Assembly (NCBI GenBank): GCA_918797485.1
Contig: CAKKNE010000002.1
Location: 2,976,001 to 3,040,000, forward strand
DNA from: Pelagomonas calceolata
Lineage: Eukaryota
Reading direction: 5' to 3'
DNA length: 64,000 nucleotides
Both the position numbers and the translations under genes were made by a program. Below, piece after piece: positions 21,227 to 61,827 of the stretch. Position 1 is the first letter of the stretch. The number at the start of each line of letters is the position of its first letter. The notes beneath the pieces were generated by a model that worked only from the letters and a program-made list of their open reading frames with translations, was not told the DNA's origin and searched no databases.

Positions 21227-24200
21227 ATGTACGCCCGCCGCCGCACCCGCCAAGCCGTAGTCCCGCCGAGCCCCAGCTCCCTGAGCACGGCCACGCAGCG
21301 ATCCCGGAGGCGCTATCCTAGGCGAGACGACACGGAACGTGTAGATGCATTACTCCAAAGACATAGAGCGCCGCTGCGAGCTCTCTATTGCCACCTCGAG
21401 GCCCAATCTAGAAGAGAAACGGAACACACCGATTCATCCTACTTTGGCGGGTACTTTGGGGACGGCGCATCCCCATTAGCTTGGGATGTGGTACAGAGGG
21501 AACGTCTAAGACCCCGCTCCTCAGTGGTCGCACGAGCGGCAGCTAGATGGAGGAACGCGGGTAGCGACGTGCAGCGATATCTTCGCGGTAGATTCCGGAG
21601 CGACACGGTCGAGTTCGAGGGCTTCGAGGCTTTTTTCGCCGGCTGGGCGCGGCGGTCGGAGGGCGGGCTCGAGGCCTGTTTACGCGCTTTAGCGGAGGAG
21701 AGTTGTGGTGTGATCGAGGCTTCGTTAGCTTCCTCGCTGAAACTCAAGGCCCCGGTTTGGTTACTGTCGCGGGACGAACGACCTTCATCAAGTGTAGATG
21801 AGGTCTGGCGCCTGGCCTTCAAGACGCTCGCCACGAATGGCGAGTGGAGATGTGGAGACGCTTATAGATTTTGTAGGAGTGCGGGGTTGCTCGGCGACGC
21901 GTTGTCGCCCTCGTTTTTGCTCGCGGCCTTCGAGAACGCATTTACCTGTGTGGAAATCAAATTTCGGGCGCCCCACGTTGTCTCCGTAGTTGTATCTGCT
22001 CGATGGCGTGGAGGTTCACGAAGTATAACCTAACTCACTGGTCGATTTCCACACAGGCGTGTTCGGCAGGTAGCGGCACGAACGTCGCCCACTCGTCCTC
22101 CGTGTTGGGCTATGTAGCTAGACAAGAACCATCACTAACGACAGAAAGGGCCTGCGAGCAGTTCCTGAGGAAGGTCGCGAGTTGCTGGTGGCGCGGCGAG
22201 AACGGTTCAGATGATGTTAAGAGGGATGTGTTCCAGTGTTTTGTGGGCGAAAGGGTGCTACCTTTACTAGCTTGTACCAGAAAAGATGTACCCACAACCA
22301 GAGATGATCTCGAGGTGGACGCTTCTACATTGAGAGTGGTCCGAGACCACGATATGGCTTTACGGTGCCTCTTCGCGGCCTACTGCCAAGAGTCCACTGA
22401 GTGTGTACCATTGCTGGGCGTGCTGCACTTCGCGCGGGACTTTCGGTTGCTGACCGCGGGTCGATTCCCCCCTGCGATCGTCGTGGACTGCGCGCGGTCG
22501 GCACGACACGCGCGCCACCCGAAGGCCATGAACACGTCCCTGAGATGGCCGGAGTTCGTCGAGGCGCTGTTGCGACTGGCCCAATCTTCTGACGGGGATG
22601 AGTCACTCGCGGAGAAGACTCGCAAGTTGCTCCAAGTGATGGATCCGACGGGACGAGTGTTCAAGCGCGGGACCGACGTGGAGGTCGAGGCGACGGCGAC
22701 GGAGACTGATGAGAGTACAGTGGAGGAGCCTTTATCACGTACGAATGATCTCTTGGACGCGTCGGACGCTGTTACGCGGCGAGCGCAAGCGACGCGGGCC
22801 GCGGCGGCGCAGTGCCTTGCCGCGGCCGCTGATGCTACGCTACAGTTAGCAGCTGCCTCCGGAGAAGAAGCCCAGGAATTGCGAGCCATCGCGGACGGCA
22901 TGGCCGTGGCCGCGCGAGCTGCGGCTCGTCGAGGCGTGGCGCGGCCGCCGCCTCTGCCGCGCATCGAGGCGCCTCCGCTCTCACCGGAATCGTCGGAACG
23001 GGAGTGGCCGCCGCCGTCGCGGAAATCCGCTGATGAGCTCTGGAGGTCACCTAGGGGCGCGTCGAGCCCGCCGCCGCCACCGAAACGGAAAGTGCCGGCC
23101 ATCGACCTCTCAGAGGCTACAGTAGAAGAGAAGGCGGAGGAGCCGGACCACTGGTGGTGGGTCGACCGGGTGGACAAGCCCGTGGAGGCGGCTAGGCATG
23201 TGGGTGCGACGGCGGTGCAGTCCCACTGTCGCGGCTTTTTGCTGCGGAAGCGGCTGGCTCGTTTAGTGGAGGAGGTGGCTACGTCTCAAAAGTCGGAGAG
23301 CGTCGAAGAGCCAGAAGAAGTACAGGAGGAGGAGGAAGAACCGATCAAGAGCGAGGAGGAAGTAGTACAATCCCAACAAGAAGCGTGCACCGAGGACGAG
23401 CGGGCCGTGATTCATGCCTTTGCGCTGGCGGCGTTGCTAGGTGATGGAAGTCCCAGGCGTATTGCTAGAGCTCGTGTCTTAGTAGAAACGCTCAAGAAGC
23501 TGCCGGACGTGGAGGATGGCGGCGAAGCTGTGGTTGCGGCCCTCGATAAAGCGGGCGACCTGCATGTCGACGAGGACAAGCCGACCTTGGAGAAGCTCGA
23601 AGTTGCTCTCAGGGATGCTCTATCGAGAGTCGCGGTCGCGGAGAAGTTCAACCCGGCCGCGGCTCGGGACGCGCGCGTCACGGCTGAAAGATTAGGTGCT
23701 GCGGTTCGGCGCCATCCTGGGTTTTGGGCTCGTAGAGCGGCGGCGGATGCGGCCTGGGAGGCGCGGGAGCGACCAGCCAATAGAGACGCCTTAGCTGCCA
23801 TGCGGAAACTGGTTCCAAGAGATGTGAGGAACATGAGGGTCGAGGAGGTAGCTGCATTTCTTGGCGGTCGCGTGGGCTTGCACTCCGACGACGCGCGGCT
23901 GAAACCCCTGGCTAAAAGGATCGTGGACCAGAAGATTCTGTGGCTGGTGCACCACGATCCCGCTCGAACGGCGAAAATACACATCGCGGATTTACGTTCT
24001 AGATATATGTACCACGACCTCGATGCCGTTGAGTTACGCGCTGTGTACGCCGCCCTGCCGTCGGAATTCGAACACGACGAGGACAATGCCAAGCAGACTT
24101 GGAGAAGGGACGTCCGGAGGAAGCTCGAGGACAGCGTGAAGAAGTGCGACGCTGGGGATTCTAGGGCGGGCCACCCGGCTTATGATGTCCTGTCCACCGC

Positions 24201-24639
24201 TACGAGACCGCCGACGCCGCCGCCCCAAGAATCGACGGATGTGAGCGCCGAGGCGTCCGACGCGTCGGGACCCGTCAGTGTGCCGAAACGCGTGGCTTCG
24301 GCAGGGACGCTGGAAAGCGCGTTGAGCTTTGAAGATTTGATGGAGAAGCAAGGGCCGTTTCGGGCGGCTTCACCAGTGCCGCCTCCACAACAGGAGGAGA
24401 AGCCGCCGGACTGGCGCGAGTGCTACGACGCAAATTATAAACGGACGTACTTTTTTAACGTGGCTTCTGGTGAAAGCCGGTGGCGGGCGCCCGACGATAG
24501 GTACGTGCCCTACGAGAAACCTATCGAAGGGCCGGTCCGGGCGCAGTCTGTGGATCCTGCAGCTTTGAAGATGGCGGCGGAACGGGTCAAACGGTCGCTG
24601 TCCGAGAGCGCGATGCCCTTCGTCGCCGAACACGGGTAA
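21227..24639 (+). CDS. Large hypothetical protein with EF-hand-like segments, IQ motif and WW domain; 2 exons (intron 21938-22056)
   Basis: In-frame join FEN|ACS after removal of the GC-AG introner; AVQSHCRGFLLRK (IQ); PPDWRECYD..YFFN..GESRWRAP (WW). Confidence 0.75.
21946..22056. mobile_element. Introner element 1 (GC-AG intron 21938-22056, + strand gene)
   Basis: TIR CTGTGTGGAAATC..GATTTCCACACAG; 8-bp flanks GCATTTAC/GCGTGTTC (5/8); phase-0 in-frame join. Confidence 0.9.
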
Positions 24640-24672
24640 TGGTTTTGCGATCAATTAGTCGATGGGGAGGCC

Positions 24673-27600
24673 CTAACCGGGTAAGTGAAAGCTGCGGGGC
24701 TTTTTCGCCACCACCTTGGGTGCCGCCCGGGGATCGATGCCCACGCGCGATATCTCTCTTTTCCGGGCCTTGGCTGCCGCGGTCGCCTTGGTTGCGGCGG
24801 CTTGCTGCCGCGGCGTCTGCGCGCCCCCGGCCGGCGGACGAGGAGGTGGCGGCGTCGGTGCGCGGCGGTGATACACGCGCCCGAGAGAGCGCTTCTCTCC
24901 CGCGACCTTAGGAATCACGCGCCCGTCGGGTCCGACCGGGTTGAGGCGGCAGCAGTGCTCCAGGCCGCGCCTCTTGATCTCGGCGTTGACCGCCTTCGCG
25001 GCCTCCTCGTCGTCGTGGAACGTCCCCAAATAGCCCGCGCCGCCCTGGAGCCGCGCCTGCCAGTAGCCTCGAGCCGCCACCCAAGAGACCCCATGGAAGC
25101 GTGACGGTCGATGAGGATGTCGCGGCTTTCCTTCTGGCTTTCTCGTTGATTTCGTCACGCCCTCCTTGCGCCAGGGCGGCGAGCGGCCGCCCTTCCTAGG
25201 ATGAATGGGCGGCCGCGCGTCCCACTCCTCCTCCTCCTCGTCCTCCGAGCTCTCGGCTTTGACCCGCGCGGGTCGGACGGGCTTCTCGGCCTTGTGCGCC
25301 CGCAGCTTCCTTCTAAAATCGGCCGGCGTGTCGTACGCGCCGCGGCCGACGCCTCGGGCTTTCATCGCCTCCTTCAGCTGCTTGGTATTCATTCCAGAAA
25401 ACTCGTCGCCCTTCTCCTCGTCGCCGTCGTCCTTGGCGTCGCGCTCAAGCGCCAGCACCCGCGGAACCGCGCCCTTGCCACCCCCGAGGCCCGCTTCCTC
25501 GACGAGCGTTTCGAGCCCATTGGCCGTGCGCGGGTCGATGCCGACGCGCGCGATCTCGTCGGCGCGCTGCTTCGCGTAGGCCGCAGCTTTGGCCGCCGCG
25601 GCCTGCTGGCGGGGCGTCGCCGCGGGCGGCGGGCGGGGCGGCGCGGGTTCCGTTTTGACCCGCGTCCTGGGATCGCGCGGCGCCGGTTCCTCAGAAAGAG
25701 GCGCCTTCGTCAAATCAATAATCAGCTCGAACTTCTCCTCCCGCCCGGGCCCGGTCAGGTTCAGGAGCTCGGCGTCGCCGTCGTCATACCTAACGACGTG
25801 CTTGAACCCGTCGAAGGCCGTCACGACCTGTGTGGAAATCAAAATTTTACGGCGCGCTCGTGCTGAATCGCCGCATCGTCCTCCACGCCATCGACGCGAC
25901 GCCTGCTCGATGGCGTGGCGATGCCGGTGCCTCGCCGCTCGAGCGAGCCAGCACCGCCGCGTCATCGCCGAGAAATGACTTGTACACAGGTCGCGACGCC
26001 CTCGTACCACTTCTCGTCGTCCCGCCACCAGACCTTGATGCGCTGATTTAACAACTCGTTGCCGATGGGCCGCACGGCGTGCCCGTTCCCGTCGAGGTTG
26101 CACCCGACTCGAAAGTCGAGCGGCCCCCGCTCCGCGATCGCTTTCTTCGTGCGCTTTTTTGTGAGAGGGAACCGCCCGAACTTGCCCAAATCTTCAATTT
26201 TTCTAGGACCCTTCTCGCCCCGTTGATGTCTACCGTAGCAGATATCACAAAGGGTATAAGGGCCGTCGGGCCCCGGCTTGGCTCTTCCGGTAGTCCCCAC
26301 CCCGCTCCCGCACCAGTTGCAGCGCCAGGTCTTGGGGTCGATCTTGGGCGGCGGCTGGTACGGCACGTACGTCGGATCGTTCCGCCTCCGCTCCTTCTCG
26401 CGCTCCCAAGGTGTTAATTTCGCCGCGTTCGCTTCTGCGGACCCTAGACACTTCTTCTCATGATTACTTCGAGCGGGTGGATGTCTTGTACTAAAAGCGC
26501 CGCACTTCCGACACGTTAACAACGGCCTCGTATCTGGACCCATTTCTTCTTCAGAGGACTCCTCCTCGCGGAGCTGCTCCCTCCGTTGATGGCGCTTCCG
26601 CCGCAGATGGTCCACATCGACACCATTCCCTTCGCGCTCCATGGACACGAAGGCCATGACCGCCTTTTGAATCGACTCGTATTCCCGACCCCGCGGGTCC
26701 GCGTAGTAATACGAATGGCCGTTCGGCTTGGACTTCAGCCAGTTCTGCTTGCGCCAGGCGCGCCAGCCTTCTAAGTTTGGAGGGCCGAGGCCGTACCTTT
26801 CATGGGCGAGCTTGGCCTTGAACGCCACAAAAGCTAGCCTTTGATCCTTCGCCTCGTCGTCGTCGTCGTCGTCGTCCTCAGCTTCCTCGGCGGCCCGCAC
26901 GGCGCGCTCGGCGACGACGTCGCGCTTGTGGTGCTCGCGCTTCGACGGCGGCGCGCGCGGCCGTACGGGCGCCGCGTCGTCGTCGGACGGGGCCTCGGCC
27001 GCGCGGCGCTTCGGCGCGGGCGCGGGCTTGCGCGCCTTCGGCGGCGGCGCGCGCTTCGCTGCCGTCACGACGAGCTCCCAGCGCCTCTGTTCAAGGTCCT
27101 CGTCCCAGTCTTCGCCGTCCTCATACCGAATTTCGTGCAGCCTCCCGCCGTCGAAGGCGTTGACATGACCAACGAACCAGGCGCGGTCGTGGGGCCACCA
27201 CACTCTGATTTTGTGACCAATGAGTCCAGCGCCGTGCGGCGCATTGGCGGGCCAGGCGTGCTTCTCTTCTTGTGAAGGATGCTTCATCTGGGAGCGCTTC
27301 GGCGGGTCGCGCCTCCTTTTGGGAGGCGGCTTCTCCCTCGATACCGGCGGGCCGCGGCGCTTTGGTGTGGGCATGACCTCGTCGTCACTAAGCTCGTCGT
27401 CGTCGGGGCGCGGCGGCGGCTCATCTATACAAATCTCGGAGATGATGCTCACGTCGTCTCCATCTTCGTTGTCGACGAGGACGAGGCGGACGCGCTCCTG
27501 CGTTGGGTGGGGCGCGCGTTTGCTCTCCGCTCTACCTCTCGATCCCCCTAGGGAGTGTGCGCGCCGCCGAGGAGGCGCGGCCGCGTTCGCGCAACATCTT

Positions 27601-27685
27601 CTCCCAGGTGGGCTGCCCAGGTGCGGTCGCTGTGAAGGGACAGGGCTGCCCGCATTGTGTGGACGCGGGCGCAGACCTCGGCCAT
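24673..27685 (-). CDS. Multidomain chromatin protein: 2 Tudor-like, MBD-like, Zn fingers (one GATA-like), SAP-like, AP2 domain; 2-3 exons
   Basis: IGHKIRVWWP..YEDG and RIKVWWRDDEKWYEG|VVTAFDG..YDDGD (Tudor); YYYADPRGREYESI (MBD-like); CNWC..GPDGPYTLCDIC; SRFHGVSW..WQARL..YLGTFHDDEEAA (AP2). Start inferred through putative intron 27498-27676. Confidence 0.8.
25828..25989. mobile_element. Introner element 2 (GT-AG intron 25997->25828, - strand gene)
   Basis: Ends CTGTGTGGAAATCAA / TGACTTGTACACAG; TSD GTCACGAC/GTCGCGAC (7/8); splicing rebuilds a Tudor domain. Confidence 0.92.
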
Positions 27686-27867
27686 CGTGCTGGGGTCGAC
27701 CTGTGTCCCCGCGCTCCCCGGGAACTGCGAGAAACAAGCGAAATTGCGGAGAGCACTTCCTAGTGCGTTACATGCCGCTAGCTGCGAAGCATTGACCAAC
27801 CAGCCTATAGCTTGCCTATAGCTTGCCCAAAAGCGTTACGAACGTTCTAACTATTCATTGATCGACC

Positions 27868-28641
27868 ATGATGCGCTACAGCCCAGTTGTATTGCTTATC
27901 ACCACGAATGCCCTGCAGCACTCACCACGCCGCCGCTGCCCACGCACCATCCGCCGCAGCAATGATGAGGAGCTCTCGATCGACGAGTTGGAAAGGAGGG
28001 AACGGGCCCTATCCAATGACGACGACGGGATCTGGATGGATGCCTTCCACCCTCCAGATATTCACGAGTGCGCGCGCTATCGCTGGAGTCAGGACGCCAC
28101 CCATGTCAAGGTAGAGGTGCCGTTACCAAACCGGCCGTCGCAGACGGACGTGGCCCTTGTTGTTGGTGAAACGAGTTTCGACCTAAGTGTCGTAAACGCG
28201 GACGTGACGATTCGCGGCCAACTCGCCGGTGAGGCGAATCCGGGGAGGTGCGGCTGGGATTTGTTTGAGGAGGGCGATGGACTGGTGGTGCGCGTCGCGA
28301 AGCGGGGCAATGGGGACTGGGACGCGTTCCTCGTTGATGAAGTCCCGGCGCCGACGGCGTCCTATAAGGGCGTCTGTGAGGCGACGGGCGCCTCTTACGA
28401 ACAGACCTCCACGGAAATGCGAATCGAGGTGGCCCTGCCGGATCATGTCGAGGCGCGCGATGTGAACGTGGCGGTGGCGGGCGACGCGTGGTCGGTCGAG
28501 GCGGGCGCCTGGTCCCTTGGAGGGGCATTAATGGGCGCCGTCCGCGCGGACGACACGGCGTGGGTTGTCGACGATGGAGTGGTTTTCATGACGCTCACGA
28601 AGCGGGCCGCCAGGACGTGGTGGGCGGGGTTGACACGGTGA
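27868..28641 (+). CDS. Tandem CS (p23/NudC-like) domain protein with N-terminal targeting peptide
   Basis: YRWSQDATHVKVEVPL and SYEQTSTEMRIEVALP; W....L.K....W.. ends. Confidence 0.75.
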   Translation: MMRYSPVVLLITTNALQHSPRRRCPRTIRRSNDEELSIDELERRERALSNDDDGIWMDAFHPPDIHECARYRWSQDATHVKVEVPLPNRPSQTDVALVVGETSFDLSVVNADVTIRGQLAGEANPGRCGWDLFEEGDGLVVRVAKRGNGDWDAFLVDEVPAPTASYKGVCEATGASYEQTSTEMRIEVALPDHVEARDVNVAVAGDAWSVEAGAWSLGGALMGAVRADDTAWVVDDGVVFMTLTKRAARTWWAGLTR

Positions 28642-29095
28642 TAGTTCTCTGTTTGTGTAATTGTTTTCTGTTGTCTTCACCTACGGTCTTGCCGCTGTGT
28701 CTGCGCATGCTCTCCGCTTGATGGGTGGAAGGTCGCTCGTCTATAGAGCTCGTCTAGGCCGGTCGTCTAGGCCGGTCGCGTGACTCGCGTCGACGGCCCG
28801 GCGGGTTGTGATATCCAGCCTCGCGGCGTCCCCGCCGGCCTGAGCGGCGTCTCGCAGGCGTGGGGCGACGCGGTCGTGCCCTTGGAGGAGTGTTCGTAGG
28901 GCGAGGCTAGTGTGTCACCGCTATGATTATCGAAGTCTCTACGCGCGGCAGGTCGGTGCCCTGAGATTACAAAAACAACGTAAGTACGACACCCACCCTT
29001 GGCGCGCGCGAGGCGCCCGCTGCGCCGGAGCCCAGCGCTCGTGTCTCGCGCGCCGCGGCGCCCGCCCGCTTACACATCACACATGGCTCAGCTGA

Positions 29096-31663
<2,568 letters not shown>

Positions 31664-31734
31664 GCGCGCGTGGCCCTGGCCCCTGAGTAACTCATTCTAC
31701 TTGAACACTTACATACACTTGCGTTGAACCTCTC

Positions 31735-32493
31735 TCAGCAACCTCGCATCTCTGCTATGCAGTCGAGCTGGTCGCCGTCCTCCATACCGATGTCGGCAGG
31801 CGTCTGGTCGCAGCGGACGCGCGAGCCGTCGAAGAGGAATCTCACGCTCGCCGCACAGACACCCACCTGGGTAGACCAGGCGTCGAAGACTCGCTCCAGG
31901 GGCGTCGTCGGCATGACCTTGAAGTACTCCTCCCTTCCGGACGCGGAACGGACGCGGATGTTCAGACTGCCGCCGGATGTCGACGGCTGCGGCCCCTGCT
32001 CGTCCCGCACGACGGCGTATTTGCGCTTGAAGGAATTTTCCAGAGGATAGGTCCAGATATGCCTGTCGTACTCGTCCTCGAAGCATTCCTTCAGCTTGTG
32101 GAGTGTCCTCTCGCGGCGCACGCGGCGGGCGCCGCAGTCCAGGACCCCGTCCGGATCGTGATCCACGAATTGCTTGAACGCCGCGTCGCAAAACGCGCGG
32201 TACCCTCGGGTATCAAGGATGTGTTCGTGCCAAATTTCGTCGACGAGCGGCGGCGGTGATAACTTCGTCGCATCGAAATCTTTGCAAACGGCCTTCAGTA
32301 CCATAAATTGCTTGTATGCTGCCAGCGCATCAAACACCTCATCTTCGTTGAGATTGAGGTTGCGCGCACAGCGCAGTACGAGCCGGCCACCAGGTTCGAC
32401 CCTTTTTGTCGTATAAGGGTCGAACGGGAGCGCCACGTCGACCGCAAAAATCGCAGCAGCGATGGCGGTCTCGTCGGCTGCGTCTTCACTCAT
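31735..32493 (-). CDS. GRDP/DUF1399-like domain fused to a C-terminal SUMO-like domain
   Basis: YKQFM.L, SPPPLVDEIWHEHILDT.GY..FC..FVDHDP; LNIRVR..FKV..TTPL..RFLFDGSRV..DQTPADIGMEDGDQLD. Confidence 0.8.
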   Translation of the reverse strand: MSEDAADETAIAAAIFAVDVALPFDPYTTKRVEPGGRLVLRCARNLNLNEDEVFDALAAYKQFMVLKAVCKDFDATKLSPPPLVDEIWHEHILDTRGYRAFCDAAFKQFVDHDPDGVLDCGARRVRRERTLHKLKECFEDEYDRHIWTYPLENSFKRKYAVVRDEQGPQPSTSGGSLNIRVRSASGREEYFKVMPTTPLERVFDAWSTQVGVCAASVRFLFDGSRVRCDQTPADIGMEDGDQLDCIAEMRGC

Positions 32494-32686
32494 CTCGGCT
32501 CGCGCGCGCCGCAGGAGCGGGCTGCAGCCTCCAGGCACTGATGCCTGTTTTTATGGCAGGGCGTCGGGGAGCCACCAAGGCGCCAGCGCTGCGGCGGCCA
32601 AGCTCACTGGAGATTGTGAGGAGGCGCAGGTTATCGTATTGCTGCGTATTCGCCGCAGAACCACGGCAAACGTGATCAGCCGCTAA

Positions 32687-32708
32687 CTAGCGTGCTGTAA
32701 GACACTAG
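32687..32708 (+). promoter_or_regulatory. Recurrent intergenic dyad motif
   Basis: CTAGCGTGCTGTAAGACACTAG, about 190 bp upstream of minus-strand ATG 32493. Confidence 0.7.
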
Positions 32709-32786
32709 CAAGCAGATCGATAAGTGTCTTCCCCCCAGGGGCTCCGCCCACTAATCCTAGCACCGTAACAATAAGACCCGAATACA

Positions 32787-34003
32787 TCAACTTAACCCCC
32801 GAAACCCGTCCGTCGCCTCGACGAGCCGCTCCACGATCTCCGGCTCGAAGGCCGAGTGGCCCGTCGTCGTGATGTGGAGCGTCGAGCCGGGCAGCTTCCG
32901 ATGGAGCTCCCACGCCGACGTCGCCGGGCAGACGACGTCGTAGCGCCCCTGGACGATGACGCACGGGATGTCCTTGATCCTACTAATCTGCGCGTCCTCC
33001 AACAGCCAGCCGTCCCTCTCAAAGAAGCCGCGGTTCGTAAAATAGTGGTTCTCGATGCGCGCAAAAGCGAGTGAAAAGTCGTCGCCGGCCCACTGCGCCT
33101 CGAGCGCCTCCGGCGTCGGCGGAAGCAAACGACTGACGGAGCCTTCCCACACGCTCCAGGCCCGCGCCGCCCTCCGCATCTCTTCCTCACCTAACTCGCC
33201 ACGCAAACGCTTGCCATACGCGGCCACGTAGCCGTCCCGTTCGACCTCTTCAGTGGGAATAATTTCAGCGTACTTCTCCCAGGCCTCCGGGAAGACAAAG
33301 GCGGTGCCCGAGCCCTCGTAGAAGAAGTCGAGTTCCTTCTTTCTCAGTAAAAAGATGCCTCGTAAAACTAACGCTGTCACGCGCTCCGGGTGTTTGACCG
33401 CGTACGAGAGACCGAGCGTCGAACCCCAGCTCCCGCCGAAGACGAGCCAGCGCTCGATGCCCAGTTTCTCCCTTATTTTCTCGTAGTCCGCGACGAGGTC
33501 CCACGTCGTGTTGTCCTCCAACCTGCGTAGAATTCTCATGTCAACCCCCACGCCATCGATGCGACGCCTGCTCGACGGCGTGCACCCGACGCTCGGGTTG
33601 ATTTTCACACGGGACGGAACGAAGCGAAGGGTGTCGACTTCCCGCAGCCGCGCTGATCAACTAAAATGATGCGGTAATGATCTGGATCGAAATAACGCGC
33701 GTGGTTTGGGACTGTGCCGCCGCCCGGCCCGCCATGCACGAAGAGCGCTGGGGTACCTTGCGGGTTGCCGTAGATGGAGTATGCGACTTCATGGATGCCG
33801 ACGGTTATGGAGCCGGTCTCGTGGGCGTCGAGCGCCGGGTAGAGCCGCGACGTGCCATCATCAGACTCCGCTCCTTCGGCGGCTCCACCGCGCAACACGA
33901 GTCGTCGCAGCGGCGCCGGCAGTGGTGCTACACGGCTTGCGCGTGAAACGACGAGCGCTGCGGCTGGCTGCAATGTTGCCAGCAGCACGAGCAGGAGACG
34001 CAT
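32787..34003 (-). CDS. PIP: Proline iminopeptidase, 2 exons (intron 33523-33620)
   Basis: HGGPGGG, DQRGCGKSTPFAS|LEDNTTWDLVAD, FGGSWGST, VQGRYDVVCP, GHSAFE. Confidence 0.95.
33523..33612. mobile_element. Introner element 3, diverged (GT-AG intron 33620->33523)
   Basis: Ends CTGCGTAGAATT / TTGATTTTCACACGG; internal CCACGCCATCGATGCGACGCCTGCTCGA shared with element 2; donor 8 nt outside the element; restores the conserved PIP motif. Confidence 0.88.
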
Positions 34004-35715: not shown

Positions 35716-35725
35716 TGAGATTAGT

Positions 35726-35960: not shown

Positions 35961-36033
35961 AGCCGTTGCGATGCGGTCGACATAAATCGATTAGTCGCCT
36001 CGGCGCGAATAACAGCTGCCCAACAACAGGACG

Positions 36034-44037: not shown

Positions 44038-44057
44038 CTACGGCTGTAAGACACTAG
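44038..44057 (+). promoter_or_regulatory. Recurrent intergenic dyad motif
   Basis: CTACGGCTGTAAGACACTAG, about 150 bp upstream of ATG 44210. Confidence 0.65.
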
Positions 44058-44209: not shown

Positions 44210-45150
44210 ATGGGCCTAACAGGCTACATCTGCTTCATGACTGCACTATCAGTCGCAGCCGCCCTGCTGTATACGCCGTCGCAGCGATTGCTCGAATGCG
44301 TCCACTGCCCAAAGTACTTCGTCGTGCGACGCGTCGACTACCTGCACTACCGAATCGAGCGGGCGCACTACCTGCTGCGCTTTGTTGCCTCAAGCTTTAC
44401 GGTGCGCGTCGTGCGCGGTGCAGAGGCGTTCGCCGGGCTCGTTTCCCTCGTCGGCGCCGCGACGGTGCTGAACCTTTGCATGGAGGTCGGCCTGCGGGTC
44501 ACGGGCCAGCGGCAGATGCGGCTCCGCGCGTACAGCCGCCTGCCAAGTGCACTCGCGGTGCTCGTTCAGGCGTTCTTCGAGGGCGGCATGCGTCAGCGTG
44601 GTTGTGCCTTCGACTCTGCTCCTACCTGCCCCCATGCCATCGCCACGCCTCACGAAACGCGCAAAACGCAGGCGTTTACTTTGGCACGTTCTTCGCCTTT
44701 GCGCTGCATTTGAACGCGGGCGACGCGACATGCGTCCTGGCTTACGCGACAGCGTGGGTCGTCTTTCCGCTCTGGTCCCTGCTACACGGATGGCCGCGAC
44801 CGCGCGCCTACGGCGCGAAGGACCACCTCTCGCGGCGCGAGATCGTGTCGACGGCGCCGAGCCGGCTCCTTCAGGTGGCGGCCGCGGCCGTGTGTTGGCG
44901 CACCGTGGCGCGGCCGCCGGCGCCGTTCCTTCGGGCGGTTGTGGCGACGCAGTTGTGCTTTTTCCCCTGGTATTTCGGGGCGCTCCGCTGGCTCGGCCGC
45001 TCGTTCATCGAGTGTGAGTCCTCCGCGCCGTCCGCGCTCGCCGACGCGCTGTGCACGGCGTACCGCGCGGCCGAGCCCGTGGCCGGGGCGTTTTCCATCG
45101 TCGCGGCGTTCGCGCTGTTTTTTCCCGAATGTTGTGAGAAATATGTATAA
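44210..45150 (+). CDS. Multi-pass membrane hypothetical protein, 2 exons (intron 44586-44671)
   Basis: In-frame join FFEG(G)|VYFGTFF via a GC-AG intron; hydrophobic helices in both exons. Confidence 0.65.
44594..44671. mobile_element. Introner element 4, highly decayed (GC-AG intron 44586-44671)
   Basis: Ends CAGCGTGG / AAAACGCAG, donor 8 nt outside; internal CCCCATGCCATCG core. Confidence 0.55.
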
Positions 45151-45157
45151 GTTTAAG

Positions 45158-48511: not shown

Positions 48512-48515
48512 AAAA

Positions 48516-51935: not shown

Positions 51936-51941
51936 GTTGCT

Positions 51942-52874
51942 TTACCCAACGCCTCCCCGCACCACCTCGAAGACCCGTATGTGGTCCGGCCGGAAGTCGG
52001 GCGCGAGGTCGCCCCGCGGGACTTCGGAGCACGCGAGGCCGCGGCGTGCCAGCGCCTCGAACAGGGCGTCGTCGACGGCGGTACTCCGCGTCTGGTGCGC
52101 CAGGAGGAGCCGCCCGCCGTCCGCGAGCAGCGCCGCGGCGCACGCCACGAACGGCTCGACGAGATCCGCCAACCAAACGACGTCCGCGGCGAGCACGACG
52201 TCCGCGGCGAGGCCCCCGACGCCGCCGCGCCAGTCCAGGGCGGCGACCGTCACGTTGGGCACTGCAACGCTGTCGACGCGGCGCCGTACGACGGGCATCG
52301 CTTCGTCGACGTCCGTGAGCACTACAGATGCGCCGAGAAGCGCGGCCGCGAGGCCCGGCAGCGCCGCGGCGCCGCAGCCCAGCTCGACGACGCTTTTACC
52401 ACGGAACAGCTCCGGCCGCGTCGCCGCGTAAGCCGCAAGGACGACGCCGCCGTCCCACGGCGTCGCCGCCGTCGCCGCCGCGTGGTTGCCGTCGACGACG
52501 GCGTCGCGCGCGGGGAGGGGCAGGGAGGCGCCTTTGACGTCGAGCGCGGCGAGCGTCGCGAAGGCGCGGCCCGGCAGCGCCTTCGGGTCTCGTCGTCGCG
52601 AGACGGCCGCCGTCGCGACGTCGGCGCGGCGCCACCGCACGTCGACCAATGAGTCGTCCTCGACGCGCAACGCGCGCCGCGCGGCATCGGCGACGGCCGC
52701 GTCGCGGTCCGCGCTGGAGGCGTCCGCCGGGGGCGTCGCGGTGCAGCGTATTCGCGTCGTCGTAGCTTCGTCTACGTCGTGCTCGACGAGGACAGTGACT
52801 CGTCTCGCCTCGCGTGGTGGTGCGGCAGCAGCCATGGATGCCATCACAGCGCCGCAGGCGATGGTTAAGCGCAT
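51942..52874 (-). CDS. Protein-lysine methyltransferase (METTL21/Methyltransf_16 family)
   Basis: PWDGGVVLA, SVVELGCGAAALPGL, VVLTD, ALDW, VVLAADVVW. Confidence 0.85.
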   Translation of the reverse strand: MRLTIACGAVMASMAAAAPPREARRVTVLVEHDVDEATTTRIRCTATPPADASSADRDAAVADAARRALRVEDDSLVDVRWRRADVATAAVSRRRDPKALPGRAFATLAALDVKGASLPLPARDAVVDGNHAAATAATPWDGGVVLAAYAATRPELFRGKSVVELGCGAAALPGLAAALLGASVVLTDVDEAMPVVRRRVDSVAVPNVTVAALDWRGGVGGLAADVVLAADVVWLADLVEPFVACAAALLADGGRLLLAHQTRSTAVDDALFEALARRGLACSEVPRGDLAPDFRPDHIRVFEVVRGGVG

Positions 52875-53059
52875 TTATGCGGCATGCTCTCCAGAGCGGT
52901 TTTGGCTCTCACACCATACAGATGGAATAGAGCGGCGTAAACGTGCTGTCACGTCTTGATGACGACCGCTGACGTTCGTATTCAAGGCTGCGGCTTGCGT
53001 AACGCGCCTCGGACGCTTGCTAGCGTCGTACAGGCACTAGCCCGATCCAGACCTGGCCA

Positions 53060-54690
53060 GGGTTGGGTTTTTTGGCCTTGGGGGGGGGCCGTGGGGTAGT
53101 TTTAGGGGGGGGTGGGGGGGGTTCACCCATCATTACTCGCCGGCTCGAGGGTGGGGGGTGGGGGGGGTCGACGGCGCCGGAGGTGACTACCGTCGCGCGC
53201 GCCGGGCGCGGATTCCGCGAGGAACTCCTAGACGCGACATGAAGTTGTTTGAGCATCGTTCCGTTGGCTGATGGGCCAGAGAGATCAATGGGACACTTAC
53301 TGGGGGGCGAAAAAAATAATTTTTTAAATTCGCGATATTGACGGTCCTACCATGACGGACGCGCCGGTGGAATCCTGTCGGTTCGTGGCGCGGAGGTGTC
53401 CCTGGGGTCGCCTAGGGTCGGTACTAGACACGCGCAAGCGCCTACACCGCATGCGCCGGCGCTTCAAGCATTTTTGGCCGATTTCTCTCAGCAGACCACT
53501 CGGTTTAGCCATCTTTTAGCCATGGTTTGCTTCCAGAGCCCTCCGAGACCACTAGGCTGCTGCATCAATGGCGTATGCGGTACATGCGCTTACCCACTAC
53601 CAGACCTACCCCGAGAGACCTCCAGGAGCCGATCTGCCCCCGAAAAAAGTGTGCAATTTGGACCCGATGGCACCTCGTTCCCGGCAAAAACGCCAATTAC
53701 CTGAGGGCCCCCAGTAGTCGCCGTAGCGGTCTCGTTGGACCCCATACTACCCCAACGATAGTCAATTACGAGTATATGCCATCTACATTATACGAAGGGT
53801 ACTTTTTGCTGCCCACACTCGGGACGTGAACATCTTTATCTGGAGCTCGCTTAAGTCGGTCGATCATGAAACAAATGATCGCGTCATGGTCTATGGTAAT
53901 GGTACACGGGCTGATGGTGCTAGGTCCAGTCAGATGCACGTATTTGGCGAGATACCGTGGTCCCGAGACGGCCGAGCCGCCAAGAGTGTACGGAACCGTT
54001 AATCAAATGTAGTACACGTTTAGGCCGGTTATCTGGCCCGTCCCATAACCGAAGCGCCTGAAACGCGAATTTATTTTATAACTCACCGGTCTGGGGCCTT
54101 TCTGTGGCTCCGTCAACGCACCGTCGTCCGCGGAGAACTGGCAAGTCGGTCGATTGTGAATAGAACAACGGCGTTATGGTCCATCTGGGTGGTGGCGTCG
54201 CTGATACTCGCGGGTTCAGGTTCTGAGCGCGGTTTCAACATAAACGCGGGGCGCGAATTCGTCGTTTCGCGCGGCTCCAACGGGTCATCCAAAATACCTC
54301 AGTAGTCGCTGATTCGGGCTAGATGGAGTCTACCACTACCAAACGGAAGGAAACGAACATAAACGCGAGAGTTGTCTAGTAGAATTCTTTTCCCGCCCTC
54401 CGAGCGCGGGCCGTCGGCTCCGGTTCCGTCGAATGTGTATGAAAACTGGGCTGGAGTTGATATGATGTACCATTTGGATAGTTGATGGCGGCGTCAAACG
54501 CTGGTGTATTTTGGCGAGCCGCAAGACCTGGTGAGCTAGCGTATGGACATACTAGGATCCGTATTTTGAGAGGGTGTTGGGGGGGGTCGTCTCATTTCTC
54601 CGACCGGTCCCAGGGAGGGGGGTAGGGGGGGTGGCACGAGGTCTCTAAAAGGGGGGGACGGCCCCCCTGGCTGGCAAAAAAACCCAACCC
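53060..54690. mobile_element. Non-autonomous TIR element (~1.63 kb), no transposase ORF
   Basis: Ungapped 46-bp imperfect inverted repeats (33/46, first 14 bp identical: GGGTTGGGTTTTTT); lower-GC interior; no TSD found. Confidence 0.7.
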
Positions 54691-54795
54691 AGCGCAGACT
54701 TTTAACGAGCTGCCAGCCCATTGATACATTCTATAGCCCGAGAAAAATCAAACCAAAAGAAGTCTCGTTGCATGCGAAACTTGGCACAAGCTAAG

Positions 54796-55872
54796 ATGGC
54801 TGCAAAACCGACCACCATGGACCGCTGGGTCCTGACGCAGAGACCGCAAGGCAAGTTCGACGCGTCGCGGGACGTCGCGAAGCGGACGGAGCCCATCCCG
54901 GAACTCAAAAAAGACGACGTTCTCGTCGAAGTAGAAATGCTGTCGGTCGACGCGTTCGTGCGGACGATGCTCGACGAGCAGGCGTACCACGGCCGCGTCG
55001 AGATTGGCGGCGCGTTGCCAGCGCTGGGCTACGGAACCGTCGTCGGAGCGGGCGCCGACGCTCAATCACACATCGGCAAGCGCGTCCTCGGCATGGTCAC
55101 CGCGTCGTCGCACGCCGTGGGACCGATGAGCATGAGCGAAGGCGGGTTCACGCAAGTGTTGAGCATCCCGGGCGTGCCCCAGCGCCTGAGCCTGAGTCTG
55201 CTCTCGTTCGCGACGGGGCTGGCCGCCTACGTCGGTTGCTTCAAGGTCCTCAAGCCTCCTCGCGCTGGTGAGACGGCGGTGGTCTCGGCGGCGGCCGGCG
55301 GCGTCGGTTCGATCGCCGTTCAGCTCCTGAAGACGACGGGCTGCCGCGTCGTCGGCGTCGCCGGCGGCCCCGTCAAGTGCGAGTTTCTCAAAAAGCTGGG
55401 CTGCGATGCGGCCGTCGACTACAAGGCGGGCTCGTTCCTCGGGGACCTCGACGTCGCCTGCCCCGACGGCGTCAATTTCTTCTTCGATAATGCGGGCGGT
55501 AGCACCCTGGACGCGGTACTCGATAGTTTGGCGCTCCACAGCCGCGTGGTCATCTGCGGCGCGGCGTCCCAGTACTCCGGGAACCTGAACGCGGGTCGCG
55601 ACGCGAAGGGCCGCGGCGGCGACGTCCAGGGCCCGAAGACGTATTTAAAATTAGCGGAGCGCTCGTCGACGATGGCAGGCTTCAACGTGATGCACTACAT
55701 GACATCTCTGCCCGGCGCCATCGCCAATTTGTGCTGGATGCACTGGCGGGGAAAAGTAGTCGTCCACGAGCAGGTCGAGGCCGGTCTGGACAGCTTTCCG
55801 GCAGCGCTCGAGAAGATGTTCTCCGGCGGGCACTGCGGCAAGATGCTCGTCGACCTGTCTAAGAAGTCCTAA
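54796..55872 (+). CDS. NADP-dependent oxidoreductase (prostaglandin reductase/CurA-like MDR)
   Basis: LSVDAFVR, VSAAAGGVGS, VVGVAGG, CPDGVNFFFDNAGG, ICGAASQY, GKMLV. Confidence 0.9.
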   Translation: MAAKPTTMDRWVLTQRPQGKFDASRDVAKRTEPIPELKKDDVLVEVEMLSVDAFVRTMLDEQAYHGRVEIGGALPALGYGTVVGAGADAQSHIGKRVLGMVTASSHAVGPMSMSEGGFTQVLSIPGVPQRLSLSLLSFATGLAAYVGCFKVLKPPRAGETAVVSAAAGGVGSIAVQLLKTTGCRVVGVAGGPVKCEFLKKLGCDAAVDYKAGSFLGDLDVACPDGVNFFFDNAGGSTLDAVLDSLALHSRVVICGAASQYSGNLNAGRDAKGRGGDVQGPKTYLKLAERSSTMAGFNVMHYMTSLPGAIANLCWMHWRGKVVVHEQVEAGLDSFPAALEKMFSGGHCGKMLVDLSKKS

Positions 55873-55894
55873 TTGTATGCACACACACATTGCC

Positions 55895-57140
55895 TTACGC
55901 AGCCGATGACCGCGCGATGAGCACGATCGCCGCGCCGTACAGACACAACATTGCCCCAATGTAAGCGAGGGCCCGCGGCGACGCGTGCTCGGCCTCGCCC
56001 CAGTAAAACAGCCCCCATAATGCCGCGACCGTCGGCGAACAACGAGCGACGGACACGGCAACCGTCACGCCGATATCTTCGCCCGCGATGAACACCAGCA
56101 CGGCCCCGCAGAACCAGGCCGCGCCCGCGACGAACCCGTAGCCCCAGGCGGCGCTGCAGATACCGACGCTCGGCGGCTGTTTCGAGCCCGACCGTCGGAG
56201 GTAGGCGGCTCGGACGGGCAGGAGGACGAGGCAGAATAGCAAATGCGACAGGCCCAGGACGACCATGAAGGCCGGGACCTGAGTGGAAATCAAATTCACG
56301 GCGCCCCGCGACGTTGTCCTGTAATTGCGTCAACCTAATTCACTGGTTGATTTCCACACAGGCCGGGACCGTCGCTCCCGCGTCCACGGCCAGCGCCTCG
56401 CCCGCGGGCCAGAAGCTCAGCAGCACGCCCGCCGCCACAGCGCGGCGGACGCCTCTCCGTGCGCCCTGCGGCTTGTCGTCCCACTGATTCTTCGTCTTCG
56501 TCGGCGAGAGCGCGTCGACCAGGCGCTCGATCGGGACGCACGCGTCGTCGCTATGGTCGCTGTCGAAGACGTAGTCGAGCTCGTCATCATCTCCTTCCGG
56601 GAGGAACTCGACCTTGCCCAGCGACCGGCCGCGCTTCAACGCTGAGGCTCCGAGCAGGCCGTCCTCCTCCGGCGGCGCCCCCCGGGGCTCGTTGTCCGCG
56701 AGCCGGAGCTGCGCCAGGGCGTCGAGGGCCACGGCTCCGAGCACGCACAGCAGCGCCCCGAGCAGCGGCCCCACGTTTAGGGCGTCCCGGTCCAGCAGGT
56801 AGAGCAGGAACGTCCCCAAGGTCATTTCGATACCCATCACCACAGGATAGCTCAACGTCACGCCGACCATCTCGATGGAGGACAGGAAGCACATGCTGCC
56901 CCCGCACCCGCACAAGCCGCCAAAGATGCCGTAGAACGCCGCGCCGCGGTGCCCGCCGATCGCTCGTACCTCCGGTGCCGCCGCGACGGCGAGCACCATT
57001 GCGCTCGCGCCGACGCCGACGCTATAAGCTTTAAAGAATAAGGACCACTGCACGGCGCTGGCCTTGGCTAGGGTCCCGATGCTGCCCCACAGGCAGAGTG
57101 CCGTGAGGCAGAGGAGCCAGCCTGCTATTGATGAGTTCAT
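55895..57140 (-). CDS. DMT-superfamily membrane transporter (TMEM144/sugar-transport-like), 2 exons (intron 56279-56369)
   Basis: LWGS, G.TLSYP, P.VAALWGLFYWGE; join AGAT|VPAFM. Confidence 0.75.
56279..56361. mobile_element. Introner element 5 (GT-AG intron 56369->56279)
   Basis: TIR CTGAGTGGAAATCAA / TTGATTTCCACACAG; perfect 8-bp TSD GCCGGGAC (56271-56278, 56362-56369). Confidence 0.95.
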
Positions 57141-57500
57141 CACGAGTTACGAACAGCTTGTGGGCTGCCCATGGCATGGCATCTCTTGCCTCGGGTATTC
57201 GCAGAGCATTCCAGCCACCGCCGGAAAAGCGGTGTTCAAAGGTCGCCGGCGACGCATCCAAGCCGCCTCCGGACGGTTCCGTGCGCGTTTGGAAGGCTGC
57301 GTTTTGGGCCGGCTGAAAAAGTCTGCTTTTTACCCAGTCCAAAAAACAGGCTGCGTTTGAGCCTATAATACACCCCAGGACGCGCAGGACGCTGCGCAAT
57401 GGCGTCTCGGATACGGCGCTGTATACGCTGAAACGCGAGGGCGACTAAAACGGGTTAGCAGAGCCGATAGACAACACCAGAAGGCCTGGTTCTCTCCGCC

Positions 57501-58235
57501 ATGTTAGCCGCGACGAGGATACCCCGCGCCCTCGCCGCGCTGGCCGAGGGCCCCACAGCTTTGTATACGCGCGGCGACGCCGTCGCGACGGCCCATCCCG
57601 TGCTCTTTGGCATGGTTTGCGCGGGCTTGAAAACGGTGGCCGCCGACCTGACCGTCCAGACCGTGGTAGAAAAAAAACAACTGCATGAAGTAGACAAACG
57701 AAGAACTATTACTTTTGGGCTCTTCGGCGTGGGTTACTTGGGAGGTATACAGTACGCGGTTTTTAACAAAGTCCTGCCGGCCATGTGGCCGCGCGCGTCG
57801 AACTTCGCCATGCGGAGCTCCCACGACAAAATAAACAACACGAAGGCTCTACGGAGCCTAGTTGGTTTAGTTGCTACCGAACAACTCATTCATACACCGT
57901 TTGTTTTTTTACCGTGCTTCTACATGACCAAGGAGGTCGTCGAGGGCGACGGTAATGTTGATGTTGCTTTGACGAAGTGGCGCAGAAATATAATCCCGGA
58001 CATGTGCGCGGACATGGTCATCTGGGTGCCCTCGAACCTTGTTAATTTTGCGTTCGTCCCCCAACACTTCCGCGTGCCGTTCGTCGCGCTGACGTCGTTC
58101 GCCTACACGATGGTGCTGTCGTTCATGCGCGGCGGCCAGAAGCGCGATGTTGTCGTCGAGGAGCCTGTCGTGCTCGAAGAAGCGCCGGTTATTGAGCCGC
58201 TCGCGGCCGTCGCGTGCGTCGCCGCGACGCCGTAG
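57501..58235 (+). CDS. Mpv17/PMP22 family membrane protein
   Basis: ADLTVQ, D.RRT..F, IWVPSNLVNFAFVPQHFRVPFV..SF. Confidence 0.88.
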   Translation: MLAATRIPRALAALAEGPTALYTRGDAVATAHPVLFGMVCAGLKTVAADLTVQTVVEKKQLHEVDKRRTITFGLFGVGYLGGIQYAVFNKVLPAMWPRASNFAMRSSHDKINNTKALRSLVGLVATEQLIHTPFVFLPCFYMTKEVVEGDGNVDVALTKWRRNIIPDMCADMVIWVPSNLVNFAFVPQHFRVPFVALTSFAYTMVLSFMRGGQKRDVVVEEPVVLEEAPVIEPLAAVACVAATP

Positions 58236-58504
58236 AATTTGCAGAAGAAGACCCCCCCGCCCGTGTGCATTGCTGTAGCATGCTGTTGCCGCTCGTTCGT
58301 ACTAAGAAACATGTAGATAGTCGTCTTCTTCGGCGCGGCGATGGCGTGGAGGCTTGACCTCCGTCCGGCGCGACGCGCCGACTCCCCGGGCCCCTGTACA
58401 TAAAAGTATGCGCCTCGAGGTATTGTTACGGTGCTAGGACTAGTGGTATGCGCCTCGACGAAACGCTCAGGCTCAGGCTAGTTACGTCGCAGGGTAAACG
58501 CCGG

Positions 58505-58526
58505 CTAGTGTCTTACACGCCGCTAG
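58505..58526 (-). promoter_or_regulatory. Recurrent intergenic dyad motif
   Basis: CTAGTGTCTTACACGCCGCTAG upstream of msrA. Confidence 0.7.
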
Positions 58527-58844
58527 CTCCGGGACAGCGTTCATTACCTCGACGTGTTTCGACCGTGCCGTCGATATTTGTCGCTGGAGAAGCTGCGCAA
58601 ATTGTTGTTCAATCCCAGCGCTCGCTGAGCTCGATACTGCTTTGCTGCGCTGCTCGCTGAGCTCGACACTGCTTGCAAGTGCTGCGCAGCGAGTGCAGCA
58701 CATACATGGCAGTGCGCACGCGCAGCGGCCGCCGCAGCGGCGCAACACCCCTCAACGGAAGTGCAGCGGCGCCATACGAGTGGAAGCTCGACGCCCTCCT
58801 CACCGTCGTCTACCTCGCGGTGCTCTACTACTGGCGCTAGAACG

Positions 58845-59642
58845 ATGAGAAGAGCACTCGTCCTCGCCACAACAACCGCGCGGGCCGTGCGCTTCGGCCG
58901 CGTGCTGGCGCCCGTGGGTTTGTTGGGAGGCGCGAGCCTGCTGTCCAGTGCGCGCGCACCCGTGCACGAATCAAATGTCGCTCGCCCACAGCTGACGCGA
59001 CGCTCTCATCGTTGATTTGCACACAGGCGAGCGCGGAAAAAGATCGACTACGAATCATTGACGGGCCTGCCCGAGAGCTGGGCCGCCGAAGCCGCCAAAC
59101 ACGCATTAGCTGGCAACACACCCACAAGGTCCGACGGCGGGTACGAGATAGCGACCTTCGCCGGCGGCTGCTTCTGGGGCGTCGAGCTGCGCTTCCAGCG
59201 CGTGCCCGGCGTCATCGCGACGGCGAGCGGCTACGTCCAAGGGCATAAATCTGAGCCGACCTACAAGGAGGTCTCGGCGCGGTCCACGGGCCACACGGAA
59301 GCGGTCCAGCTCATTTTCGATCCGGGCGTTGTGAGTTATGCGGACTTGCTGGAGATCTACTGGGACCGACTGGGCGACGACGCCACGCGCGCCAACGCCG
59401 TTGGCAACGACCGCGGGCCGCAGTACCGCTCCGGCGTCTACGCGCTTTCCGAGAGACAGCTCGCCGCCGCGGAGGCGTCGCTATCAAAGCGCCAGGAGCG
59501 CTTCGCGAAGCCGATCGCGACGGAGGTCGAAATGCAAAGAGGCGTCTTCTGGCCCGCGGAGGAGTACCACCAGCAGTACCTCGAGAAGGGCGGCCAGTCC
59601 GCCAGGAAAAAGGAGACGGAGCCGATCCGGTGTTATGGGTAA
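58845..59642 (+). CDS. msrA: Peptide methionine sulfoxide reductase A, 2 exons (intron 58952-59026)
   Basis: FAGGCFWGVE, TGHTEAV, GNDRGPQYRS, AEEYHQQYLEKGG, IRCYG; targeting-peptide exon joins in frame. Confidence 0.93.
58960..59026. mobile_element. Introner element 6 (GC-AG intron 58952-59026)
   Basis: Ends CCGTGCACGAATCAA / TTGATTTGCACACAG; TSD GCGCGCAC/GCGAGCGC (6/8). Confidence 0.85.
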
Positions 59643-59647
59643 GAGCC

Positions 59648-60433
59648 TTATGTTACACTACCAAACATCTTGCCGAACAGCGTCGGCCGCCGCCGCTGGT
59701 ACAGGAACACGTCGGTCCCGCCGCCGGCCGCGTTCCACGACATCGCCGCGCGGCGCTTGCCTACCCGATCAAAGGACTCGCTCGGGAAGTCGCTCAGCGT
59801 CGCAATACTCGCGACGGTACTCGCGTCGAGCGCGCGGCCGAGCTTCGCCAGCATGCAGTCGTCGAAGAGGAGCGAGGCGACGTACGCGTGCGACACCTCC
59901 AGCTCCGGCAGTGCGGCGAGGATGTCGCCGTGCACGAACTCGGGCGCGGCCGCTGTTGACAAAGCGGCGGGTGCGTCGTCGTCGACGAGCAGGCGCGCGA
60001 GGCCCTCGACCGCGCAGTCGTGCCGCGTGCGCGAGAGCTCGACGCCCACCGACGACTGCACATGACATTCGAGCCAGCACTGCGCGACCATCCGCCCGGC
60101 ACCCGAGCCGAGGTCGGCGAATGACGCATCCTCAGGCGCGTCGTGGAGCAGCCCGAGCATGTCGAAGACGGTGCGCGCGCCGCCCGCGACGACCTCTCCA
60201 TAAGTATTGCCGAACTCGCCCGCGATTTCATCGATCGCGGCCTCCTCGTCCGGCGTCGCGCGGTGGCCGTCCAGGCCGCGCCAGGCGCGCTCGACGGCGC
60301 CATCAATGGCCTCGCGGCGCAGCATCTCGGCCGGCGTCCGCGGCGCCGGCGGCGCCACCGGGGCCTGCGGCACGAGCCCGGACGCCGCCAGCGAGGCGAC
60401 GGCGACCGCCGTCGTAAAGGGGTCGACGCGCAT
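59648..60433 (-). CDS. DOT1-like SAM-dependent methyltransferase
   Basis: TYGEV, FADLGSGAGRMVAQ, SVGVELS..RH, HGDI, AYVASLLF, MSW. Confidence 0.8.
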   Translation of the reverse strand: MRVDPFTTAVAVASLAASGLVPQAPVAPPAPRTPAEMLRREAIDGAVERAWRGLDGHRATPDEEAAIDEIAGEFGNTYGEVVAGGARTVFDMLGLLHDAPEDASFADLGSGAGRMVAQCWLECHVQSSVGVELSRTRHDCAVEGLARLLVDDDAPAALSTAAAPEFVHGDILAALPELEVSHAYVASLLFDDCMLAKLGRALDASTVASIATLSDFPSESFDRVGKRRAAMSWNAAGGGTDVFLYQRRRPTLFGKMFGSVT

Positions 60434-60669
60434 ATTCTTTTTTCAATTATCGAAGCTTCGTAACTTGTTTTTTGGGGTCCGCGCGTACTCCGCTTCCAGC
60501 TCCTTGATCTTGTCCTCAGTGGTTTATATCTGTGGCGCAGCGATGTACTCTGAGCTGCCTGCAGCTCACTGATGCGTGCGATTGCTGCCACAGCGATAGC
60601 TACGAGCTATGCCTAGTGCCAGTAACACGCTCACCAGTAACACGCTCACCAGCACCGGCAAAACGCGAG

Positions 60670-60689
60670 CTAGCGTTGTAAGACACTAG
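60670..60689 (+). promoter_or_regulatory. Recurrent intergenic dyad motif
   Basis: CTAGCGTTGTAAGACACTAG upstream of minus-strand ATG 60433. Confidence 0.7.
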
Positions 60690-60781
60690 GAATCAGGTAC
60701 GCGAGACACTTAGCCAAGCGAGAGACCGAGTTGGTCTGTCATGCGGGTTGCCCCGGCGGGCGGGGGGAGACGGGCGCGGCT

Positions 60782-61827
60782 CTACCACTGGTCCTGGCGA
60801 TCCGGCCGGCGGACGCCAGCCTCATCGCGGATCTTCTCGCGGAAGACGAAGCCCGGCCGCCCGCCGTCGTCCGCGTGCTCGTAGGGGTGCTCCTGGCGGA
60901 ACTCGACCGCGCGCACCGTGAGGTCGAGGCCGTTCGCCTCGATCGCCGCGACGGACCGCGGTGGCAAGAGCCATGCGCGCGCGATCGTCACCGTGTCCAA
61001 GTAGGGCGTGAGTACCTGTGTAAGCGACCACGTCAAGCATATAAAGTGCGATGGTGCGCTGGTGCGAGCCCAGATCCGGTTCCCGGTGCCGTCGGAGAAG
61101 ACGTCGACGCGGATGCGGTGAGCTTCGAGGAGGCCTTCCGCGGGGAACATGTGCTCCGGGCCATAGAGCACGACCCGAAACGCCATGCCGAACCAGAGCG
61201 ACAACCAGTGGACCTCCTCCCACTTCGACCTCTCCTTCAGCTTCGCCAGGAGCGCGATGACGGCCAGCAGTAGCGACAGCATGTGCGCGTGGTGCCAGCC
61301 CACCGGTATAGTAATGTTTTCGAAGTAAGAGTCGTCCCACTCGCCGACGCCCTCGTTTGCCAGTTTATAACCAATACAACCGAACAAGTAGTGCGCCGTC
61401 CCGTAGAGCTTACCGAGGTCGTCGTTACCAACACCGATCGGTCTCTCTTCGAAGGGGCCTACGTGCGTCATCTCCAACATGCCCTCAAAGGCCTCGCCTA
61501 GCAGTAGTAACGGGCTCAGCGTCCGCTTGGCCGTGTTGTCCATGAACCTGTGTCGAGACCATGCCATCGACGCGACGACGACTCGTCGACCCCACGCCAT
61601 CGACCCGACGGTACACCGACCGCAACGCAGTCGTCGACGTGACGCGGAGTACTCGAACTCTTTGATTTTCACACGGTCGCGTGCTGCACTGCCATTTTCA
61701 CGCCACCGCCCTCCGCGTATTTTTGCACGAAGCGCGTGGCACCCGCGCAGAACTCCTCCACGTTCTTATCAAATTTTAATTTGTGCTCGGCCGTGGCGCG
61801 GCTATACATGTCCCTGTCTCTTATCAT
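60782..61827 (-). CDS. Hypothetical protein, at least 2 exons (intron 61548-61684); start uncertain
   Basis: In-frame join KMAVQ|FMDNTAK after removal of the introner. Confidence 0.55.
61548..61676. mobile_element. Introner element 7 (GC-AG intron 61684->61548)
   Basis: Ends CTGTGTCGAGACCA / TTGATTTTCACACGG; two copies of the GCCATCGAC core; donor 8 nt outside the element. Confidence 0.85.

Follow-up and report, generated by a model that had tools for sequence, protein, structure and literature searches.

Six, and probably seven, short introns of the alga Pelagomonas calceolata are probably shrunken copies of a small transposon that likely created introns where it landed

The origin of new introns is a long-standing question to which introners are the best answer so far. 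In Aureococcus anophagefferens, introner elements reportedly carry one splice site and recruit the other from the target duplication, an account said to go back to Huff et al. in 2016. Miniature elements of the hAT class make an 8-bp target duplication and have short terminal inverted repeats (TIRs) and no coding capacity, and the ends of most hAT elements begin with CAG or TAG.

Introners of P. calceolata are already in print. The available text of Guerin et al. 2022 (PMC9481584) gives 956 putative introner elements for the species, with GT/GC donors, an AG acceptor and a conserved TIR, and defines them as introns in which a repeat covers upwards of 90% of the length. The available part of Gozashti et al. 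2025 (PMC12130899) has 11 introner families for P. calceolata. Family 2 is entered there with 340 copies as a TIR DNA/hAT element of 202 bp with a 13-bp TIR (GT 281, GC 42), and its RepBase match is hATv-2N1_EHux, in a table that, as available, is without a TSD length. A 2022 preprint of Gozashti et al. and a 2020 preprint describe, in their available text, the introner mechanism and credit it to Aureococcus. Because such introners have been published for P. calceolata, we class the present observation as already known. The window analyzed here is a clean, RNA-backed introner example in an abundant ocean alga, and the detail added is a measured 8-bp duplication, use in either orientation, and decayed copies of a kind that counts based on repeat overlap may overlook.

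The window is a stretch of 64,000 nucleotides (contig CAKKNE010000002.1) with 62% GC, against 63.6% for the published P. calceolata genome in the available text of PMC9481584. The Pfam domains along it are, in order, exostosin, vasohibin, flavin monooxygenase, THUMP, CBS/PP2C, WW+IQ, CDC48, proline iminopeptidase (PIP), C2+LRR, alcohol dehydrogenase, MsrA and GST. The same gene order runs from Pca_2p16120 to Pca_2p16440 in the available annotation table of that genome (PMC9481584), a match of gene order and not of aligned DNA. One open frame (2,385 aa) spans positions 36013-43170; it encodes eight C2 domains together with a leucine-rich repeat, and no intron is evident in it. Separately, the motif CTAGTGTCTTAC, followed by CGCTAG after 2-5 nt, has 10 copies in the window (4555, 7820, 11255, 17437, 20303, 32697, 44046, 58505, 60678 and 62813) against 0.13 expected. 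The copies lie between genes, most of them directed toward a gene start, and at 58505 and 62813 read piles about 27-53 nt downstream may mark RNA 5' ends. With 17 further matches in high-GC metagenome loci and 0/20 in low-GC loci, this motif is likely to be either a promoter element used throughout the genome or a very small repeat; a literature search found no report of it.

[quoted passage not shown] The element is likely an hAT-type miniature transposon. A preliminary description of this DNA had claimed seven segments with shared ends, at 21946-22056, 25828-25989, 33523-33612, 44594-44671, 56279-56361, 58960-59026 and 61548-61676. All seven segments are present, and the shared ends stand for six of them: the 15-bp inverted ends CTGTGTGGAAATCAA are carried by every element except the one at 44594. 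When at most one mismatch is allowed, the end pattern CYGTGTGRAAATCAA occurs 8 times in the window, every time at an end of one of the six elements, where 0.01 would be expected, and 8 matches were reached in 0/100 shuffles of the window. Leave-one-out end scores ranged from 6.6 to 25.4 bits in the six elements. A loose paired-end PWM scan gave 31 weak pairs in the window and 14-30 in simulated sequence; because weak pairs are as frequent in simulated sequence, only strong pairs count. Weak profile matches at 9082, 12825, 13992, 17357, 35866 and 58339 were without paired ends. A lone end-like sequence (13/15) at 21070-21084, upstream of the WW/IQ gene and without a partner end, is a remnant or chance.

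The segment at 44594-44671 is the element of intron 4 (44586..44671, + strand, 86 nt, GC..AG), which is spliced and whose family membership is doubtful. Quite possibly, at somewhat less than an even chance, intron 4 is simply an ordinary intron, which would bring the family down from seven members to six here: its end scores are negative (-7.7/-8.4), it has no profile match, its alignment score to full copies is negative, and its duplication reaches only 3/8. On the other hand, it holds the family's 14-nt internal motif with one mismatch, a motif with 5 further occurrences outside the listed elements, and CAGCGTGG follows the GC donor at a distance of exactly 8 nt, the remnants being in the expected order. 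As a member of the family, 44594-44671 is at best a decayed copy.

No copy in the window is full length. The copies measure 67-162 bp and occur in both orientations relative to the gene; copies 1, 2, 3 and 5 align to the 203-bp copies as internal deletions, and elements 6 and 7 are more decayed. Intron 1 (21938..22056, + strand, 119 nt, GC..AG), in the WW/IQ-domain gene, consists of the target copy 21938-21945 and a 111-bp deletion derivative of subfamily A2. Intron 2 (25828..25997, - strand, 170 nt, GT..AG) splits a Tudor-like motif with a 162-bp subfamily A element (profile match E 2e-48), whose target copies at 25990-25997 and 25820-25827 are 7/8 alike. Intron 3 (33523..33620, - strand, 98 nt, GT..AG) has a 90-bp decayed subfamily A element within the PIP gene. 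Intron 5 (56279..56369, - strand, 91 nt, GT..AG), in an EamA-type transporter gene, has an 83-bp A2-derived element with a perfect 8-bp duplication (56271-56278 = 56362-56369). Intron 6 (58952..59026, + strand, 75 nt, GC..AG), upstream of the MsrA domain, contains an in-frame stop and a 67-bp element with a 6/8 duplication. The predicted intron 7 (61548..61684, - strand, 137 nt, GC..AG) would hold a decayed element of 129 bp and lies in a gene whose function is not known.

The donor rule proposed earlier, by which GT or GC precedes the element by exactly 8 nt and the element ends in CAG, was confirmed in 7/7 elements when read in the sense orientation. All seven retain the acceptor CAG, and the opposite end is altered at its first three bases in 4/7. 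The claim of target duplications in all seven was overstated; they are clear in three to four of the seven. Mismatches among the 8 positions number 0 at 56279, 1 at 25828, 2 at 58960 and 3 at 21946, and the copies at 33523, 44594 and 61548 differ at 5/8. Excision had been described as removing the element with one target copy and restoring the frame. A longer open frame was indeed obtained in 7/7 cases; because of the 5/8 mismatches, removal of one target copy is only presumed at 33523, 44594 and 61548.

RNA reads from four raw polyA runs of one sample (6-12% of each run read) were mapped to 43600-63500 at 98% likeness, and five joints were listed from a 30% share upward. Exact joints were found at three elements: an 86-nt skip at 44586-44671 (26 reads), a 91-nt skip at 56279-56369 (20 reads) and a 75-nt skip at 58952-59026 (182 reads), each placeable at GY..AG on the transcribed strand. 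Element 7 gave no joint; its gene is barely expressed, with an RNA depth below 1 over most of the second exon. A 36-nt joint within element 5, with 5 reads, probably stems from other copies. The core of the preliminary description, that of non-autonomous TIR transposons with a carried 3' site and a donor taken from the 8-bp target duplication, is thus supported by RNA joints at 3/4 readable listed elements and by 93 related elements described below. The statement that such elements account for nearly all introns of the window was not confirmed: 3/4 splice joints in 43.6-63.5 kb belong to listed elements, and one belongs to an unrelated 198-nt GC..AG intron (62429..62626, - strand, 107 junction reads) without the family's ends and without a profile match. 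This intron, of introner-like length, had been missed.

Exact RNA removal was therefore seen for 3/7 introns and is predicted for the other four. Read mapping of 16000-35900, done at 90% likeness with mixed runs, was swamped by other element copies; none of the 15 joints listed of 305 is a splice joint, and the RNA strand agrees with the three predicted genes that hold them. In run X21, loose read ends occur at 22057 and 25824. More than 1,000 RNA reads link an end of the family to a single foreign sequence; an abundant transcript therefore retains a copy that lies elsewhere in the genome.

Homologous proteins bear on introns 2 and 3. Of the 120 homologues of PIP listed, 110 span the intron 3 site and 109 of these align ungapped, which confirms the earlier claim that excision rebuilds the PIP motif; across the intron, the match to the Pfam hydrolase profile is split at positions 43/49. 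Rebuilding of the Tudor motif at intron 2 found weaker support: both halves are in register but below threshold, the upstream half matching residues 8-30 of PDB 7de9 (E 0.016) and the downstream half positions 17-40 of PF21743 Tudor (E 0.08), and a search for homologues of this gene among longer proteins gave none. For introns 1 and 7, splicing is predicted from the reading frame. The frame of the intron 7 gene is 353 aa when spliced vs 103 aa unspliced, and a representative homologue search for this gene returned 3 matches, none spanning the junction.

Related elements were collected from marine metagenomes. A scan for one end gave at least 125 stretches, of which 124 loci were taken; 32 matches were without a partner end (low-GC contigs or contig ends), and removal of duplicates, one incomplete flank and one false long pair left a paired set of 93 elements among the matches listed. 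A perfect 8-bp duplication flanks 36/93 of these listed elements, and at any of 4-7 or 9-12 bp at most 1 is perfect. With at most one mismatch, duplications number 59/93 listed vs 1.2 in shuffles (maximum 6 in 1000). GT/GC..AG is available in at least one orientation in 87/93 elements listed and in both orientations in 21. In the downstream target copy the first G was fixed by the search pattern, and that position is therefore not evidence; the second target position is T or C in 35/36 of the perfect-duplication cases among the matches listed. Lengths among the 93 listed run from 54 to 207 bp, the commonest being 203 bp (17 exactly). By their interiors the 93 listed fall into subfamilies A (46), A2 (18) and B (12), with 17 unassigned; of the window elements, 2 and 3 align to A and 1 and 5 to A2. 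In one DNA run, which may be the window's own source, summed contig depth at the element end was about 1.4 million vs about 550 for unique DNA, a figure that marks a high-copy repeat and is not a copy number. Three viral matches to the ends were lone ends and were taken as chance.

Subfamily B (L002, L005, L008, L018, L025, L027, L045, L049, L061, L074, L078 and L100) has the same ends, is mostly 203 bp long and lies on contigs whose GC content is mostly 70-75%. Its interior runs colinear with that of A and needs no gaps, the mean interior identity being 0.40 at offset 0 vs 0.25 (sd 0.04, maximum 0.38) at 120 other offsets, and judged by this alignment it is likely, though not strongly so, homologous to A. 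The host is probably a second pelagophyte. For one gene flanking a B element, the pelagophyte Chrysophaeum taylorii is the best named relative (65%), but a single gene is too little to place the host. That these ends and a length of exactly 203 bp recur in a host of roughly 73% GC suggests a length constraint kept across species.

From these data we propose how such introns would arise. A transposase encoded elsewhere, of hAT type and acting in trans, would insert the element and duplicate 8 bp. Because both ends read CTG..CAG, either orientation of the element puts AG at the 3' end. Genic copies would come to lie at targets starting with GT or GC, as they do across the family, through target choice or selection. 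The spliceosome would then take out target copy and element together and leave the original message, as the joints of introns 4-6 show. After fixation, the interior and the donor-side end would decay, and GY and the final CAG would be kept.

It has to be considered whether the elements entered or replaced older introns at these positions and created none. Three of the seven sites are without a clear duplication, and no empty allele was seen at the DNA level among close PIP relatives, both of which would fit. We nevertheless regard this as very unlikely: the intron limits coincide to the base with target copy plus element, no leftover intron sequence lies beside the elements, and the 8-nt offset is fixed in 87/93 related copies among the matches listed. 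Among the close PIP relatives, 14 rows are continuous and 12 rows plus the window are broken at intron 3; the two kinds are intermingled and twice identical in exon 2, and on a poorly resolved PIP tree presence and absence require 8 changes vs 10.2 when shuffled, so that the label is not clustered. This pattern fits transcripts vs genomic gene calls as well as it fits polymorphism. The DNA runs broke at the elements.

An autonomous hAT-transposase partner with the same ends was not found in 127 loci among the matches listed. A candidate 1,669-bp end pair in L055 proved to be two separate copies, and 53053-54697 of the window was rejected as a partner, having different ends and only short frames. 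The 53053-54697 segment (1.65 kb) has imperfect inverted ends of 40 nt and subterminal tracts rich in G, shows neither a long frame nor a clear target duplication, and is probably another non-autonomous transposon; it is repeated, since its part 54130-54527 is 85% like locus L011. The missing partner would suit a spread of copies via RNA, by reverse splicing rather than DNA transposition, which we consider extremely improbable. Under reverse splicing, all copies would share a single orientation and an invariant 5' end, but no two sites here have the same first 8 intron bases. Inverted ends, a duplication of strictly 8 bp and the occurrence of either orientation in genes are marks of a DNA transposon.

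At the scale of the genome, 6-7 copies per 64 kb correspond to about 3,000-3,500 in 32.4 Mb, a figure that may be too high because the window was picked for this feature, vs about 7,500 introns (16,667 genes with 0.45 introns per gene in the available text of PMC9481584). At 0.45 introns per gene, more introns would be predicted in the window than the 8 found. We advance only tentatively, as a conjecture that may well fail, that the published counts (340-956) miss decayed copies, that one transposon lineage made at least 40% of the introns in this alga, which would form a visible gradation between the full element and introns no longer recognisable as copies, and that the 203-bp length is constrained across species. 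The available literature, which is less than a full literature check, yielded no statement on decayed copies or a sister subfamily.

Compared with described systems, the window shows the dispersed similar sequences spanning whole introns that characterize introners, with six copies in six unrelated genes plus 93 related copies among the matches listed, and exact mRNA removal restoring the pre-insertion sequence is documented by RNA joints (introns 4, 5 and 6) and homologues (intron 3). The Aureococcus arrangement, in which the 3' site is carried and the 5' site co-opted, was found in 7/7 window elements and in 87/93 metagenome elements among the matches listed. The introners of Aureococcus anophagefferens, likened here by description and not by end sequences, are also TIR elements of about 200 bp in a pelagophyte, though of a different genus. 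With hAT miniature elements the family has in common the 8-bp duplication, short TIRs (15 bp here) and a non-coding interior without coding capacity; its ends begin with CTG. The intron-length peak near 210 nt in the available text of Guerin et al. 2022 (PMC9481584) equals the 203 + 8 of the elements described here, and that text, as available, gives no mechanism or TSD for its elements, unlike the 8-bp duplication measured here. Families 3 and 39 of PMC12130899 (203 bp, 13-14-bp TIR), as they appear in its available part, could be sister subfamilies. Family 2 in the same part of PMC12130899 comes from the same species and resembles the window elements in its hAT TIR, its co-opted 5' and carried 3' site and its GT/GC donors; it measures 202 bp, whereas the window copies are deletion derivatives of 67-162 bp. 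From these matching properties, compared by property table and not by consensus sequence, we infer that the window elements belong to published family 2.
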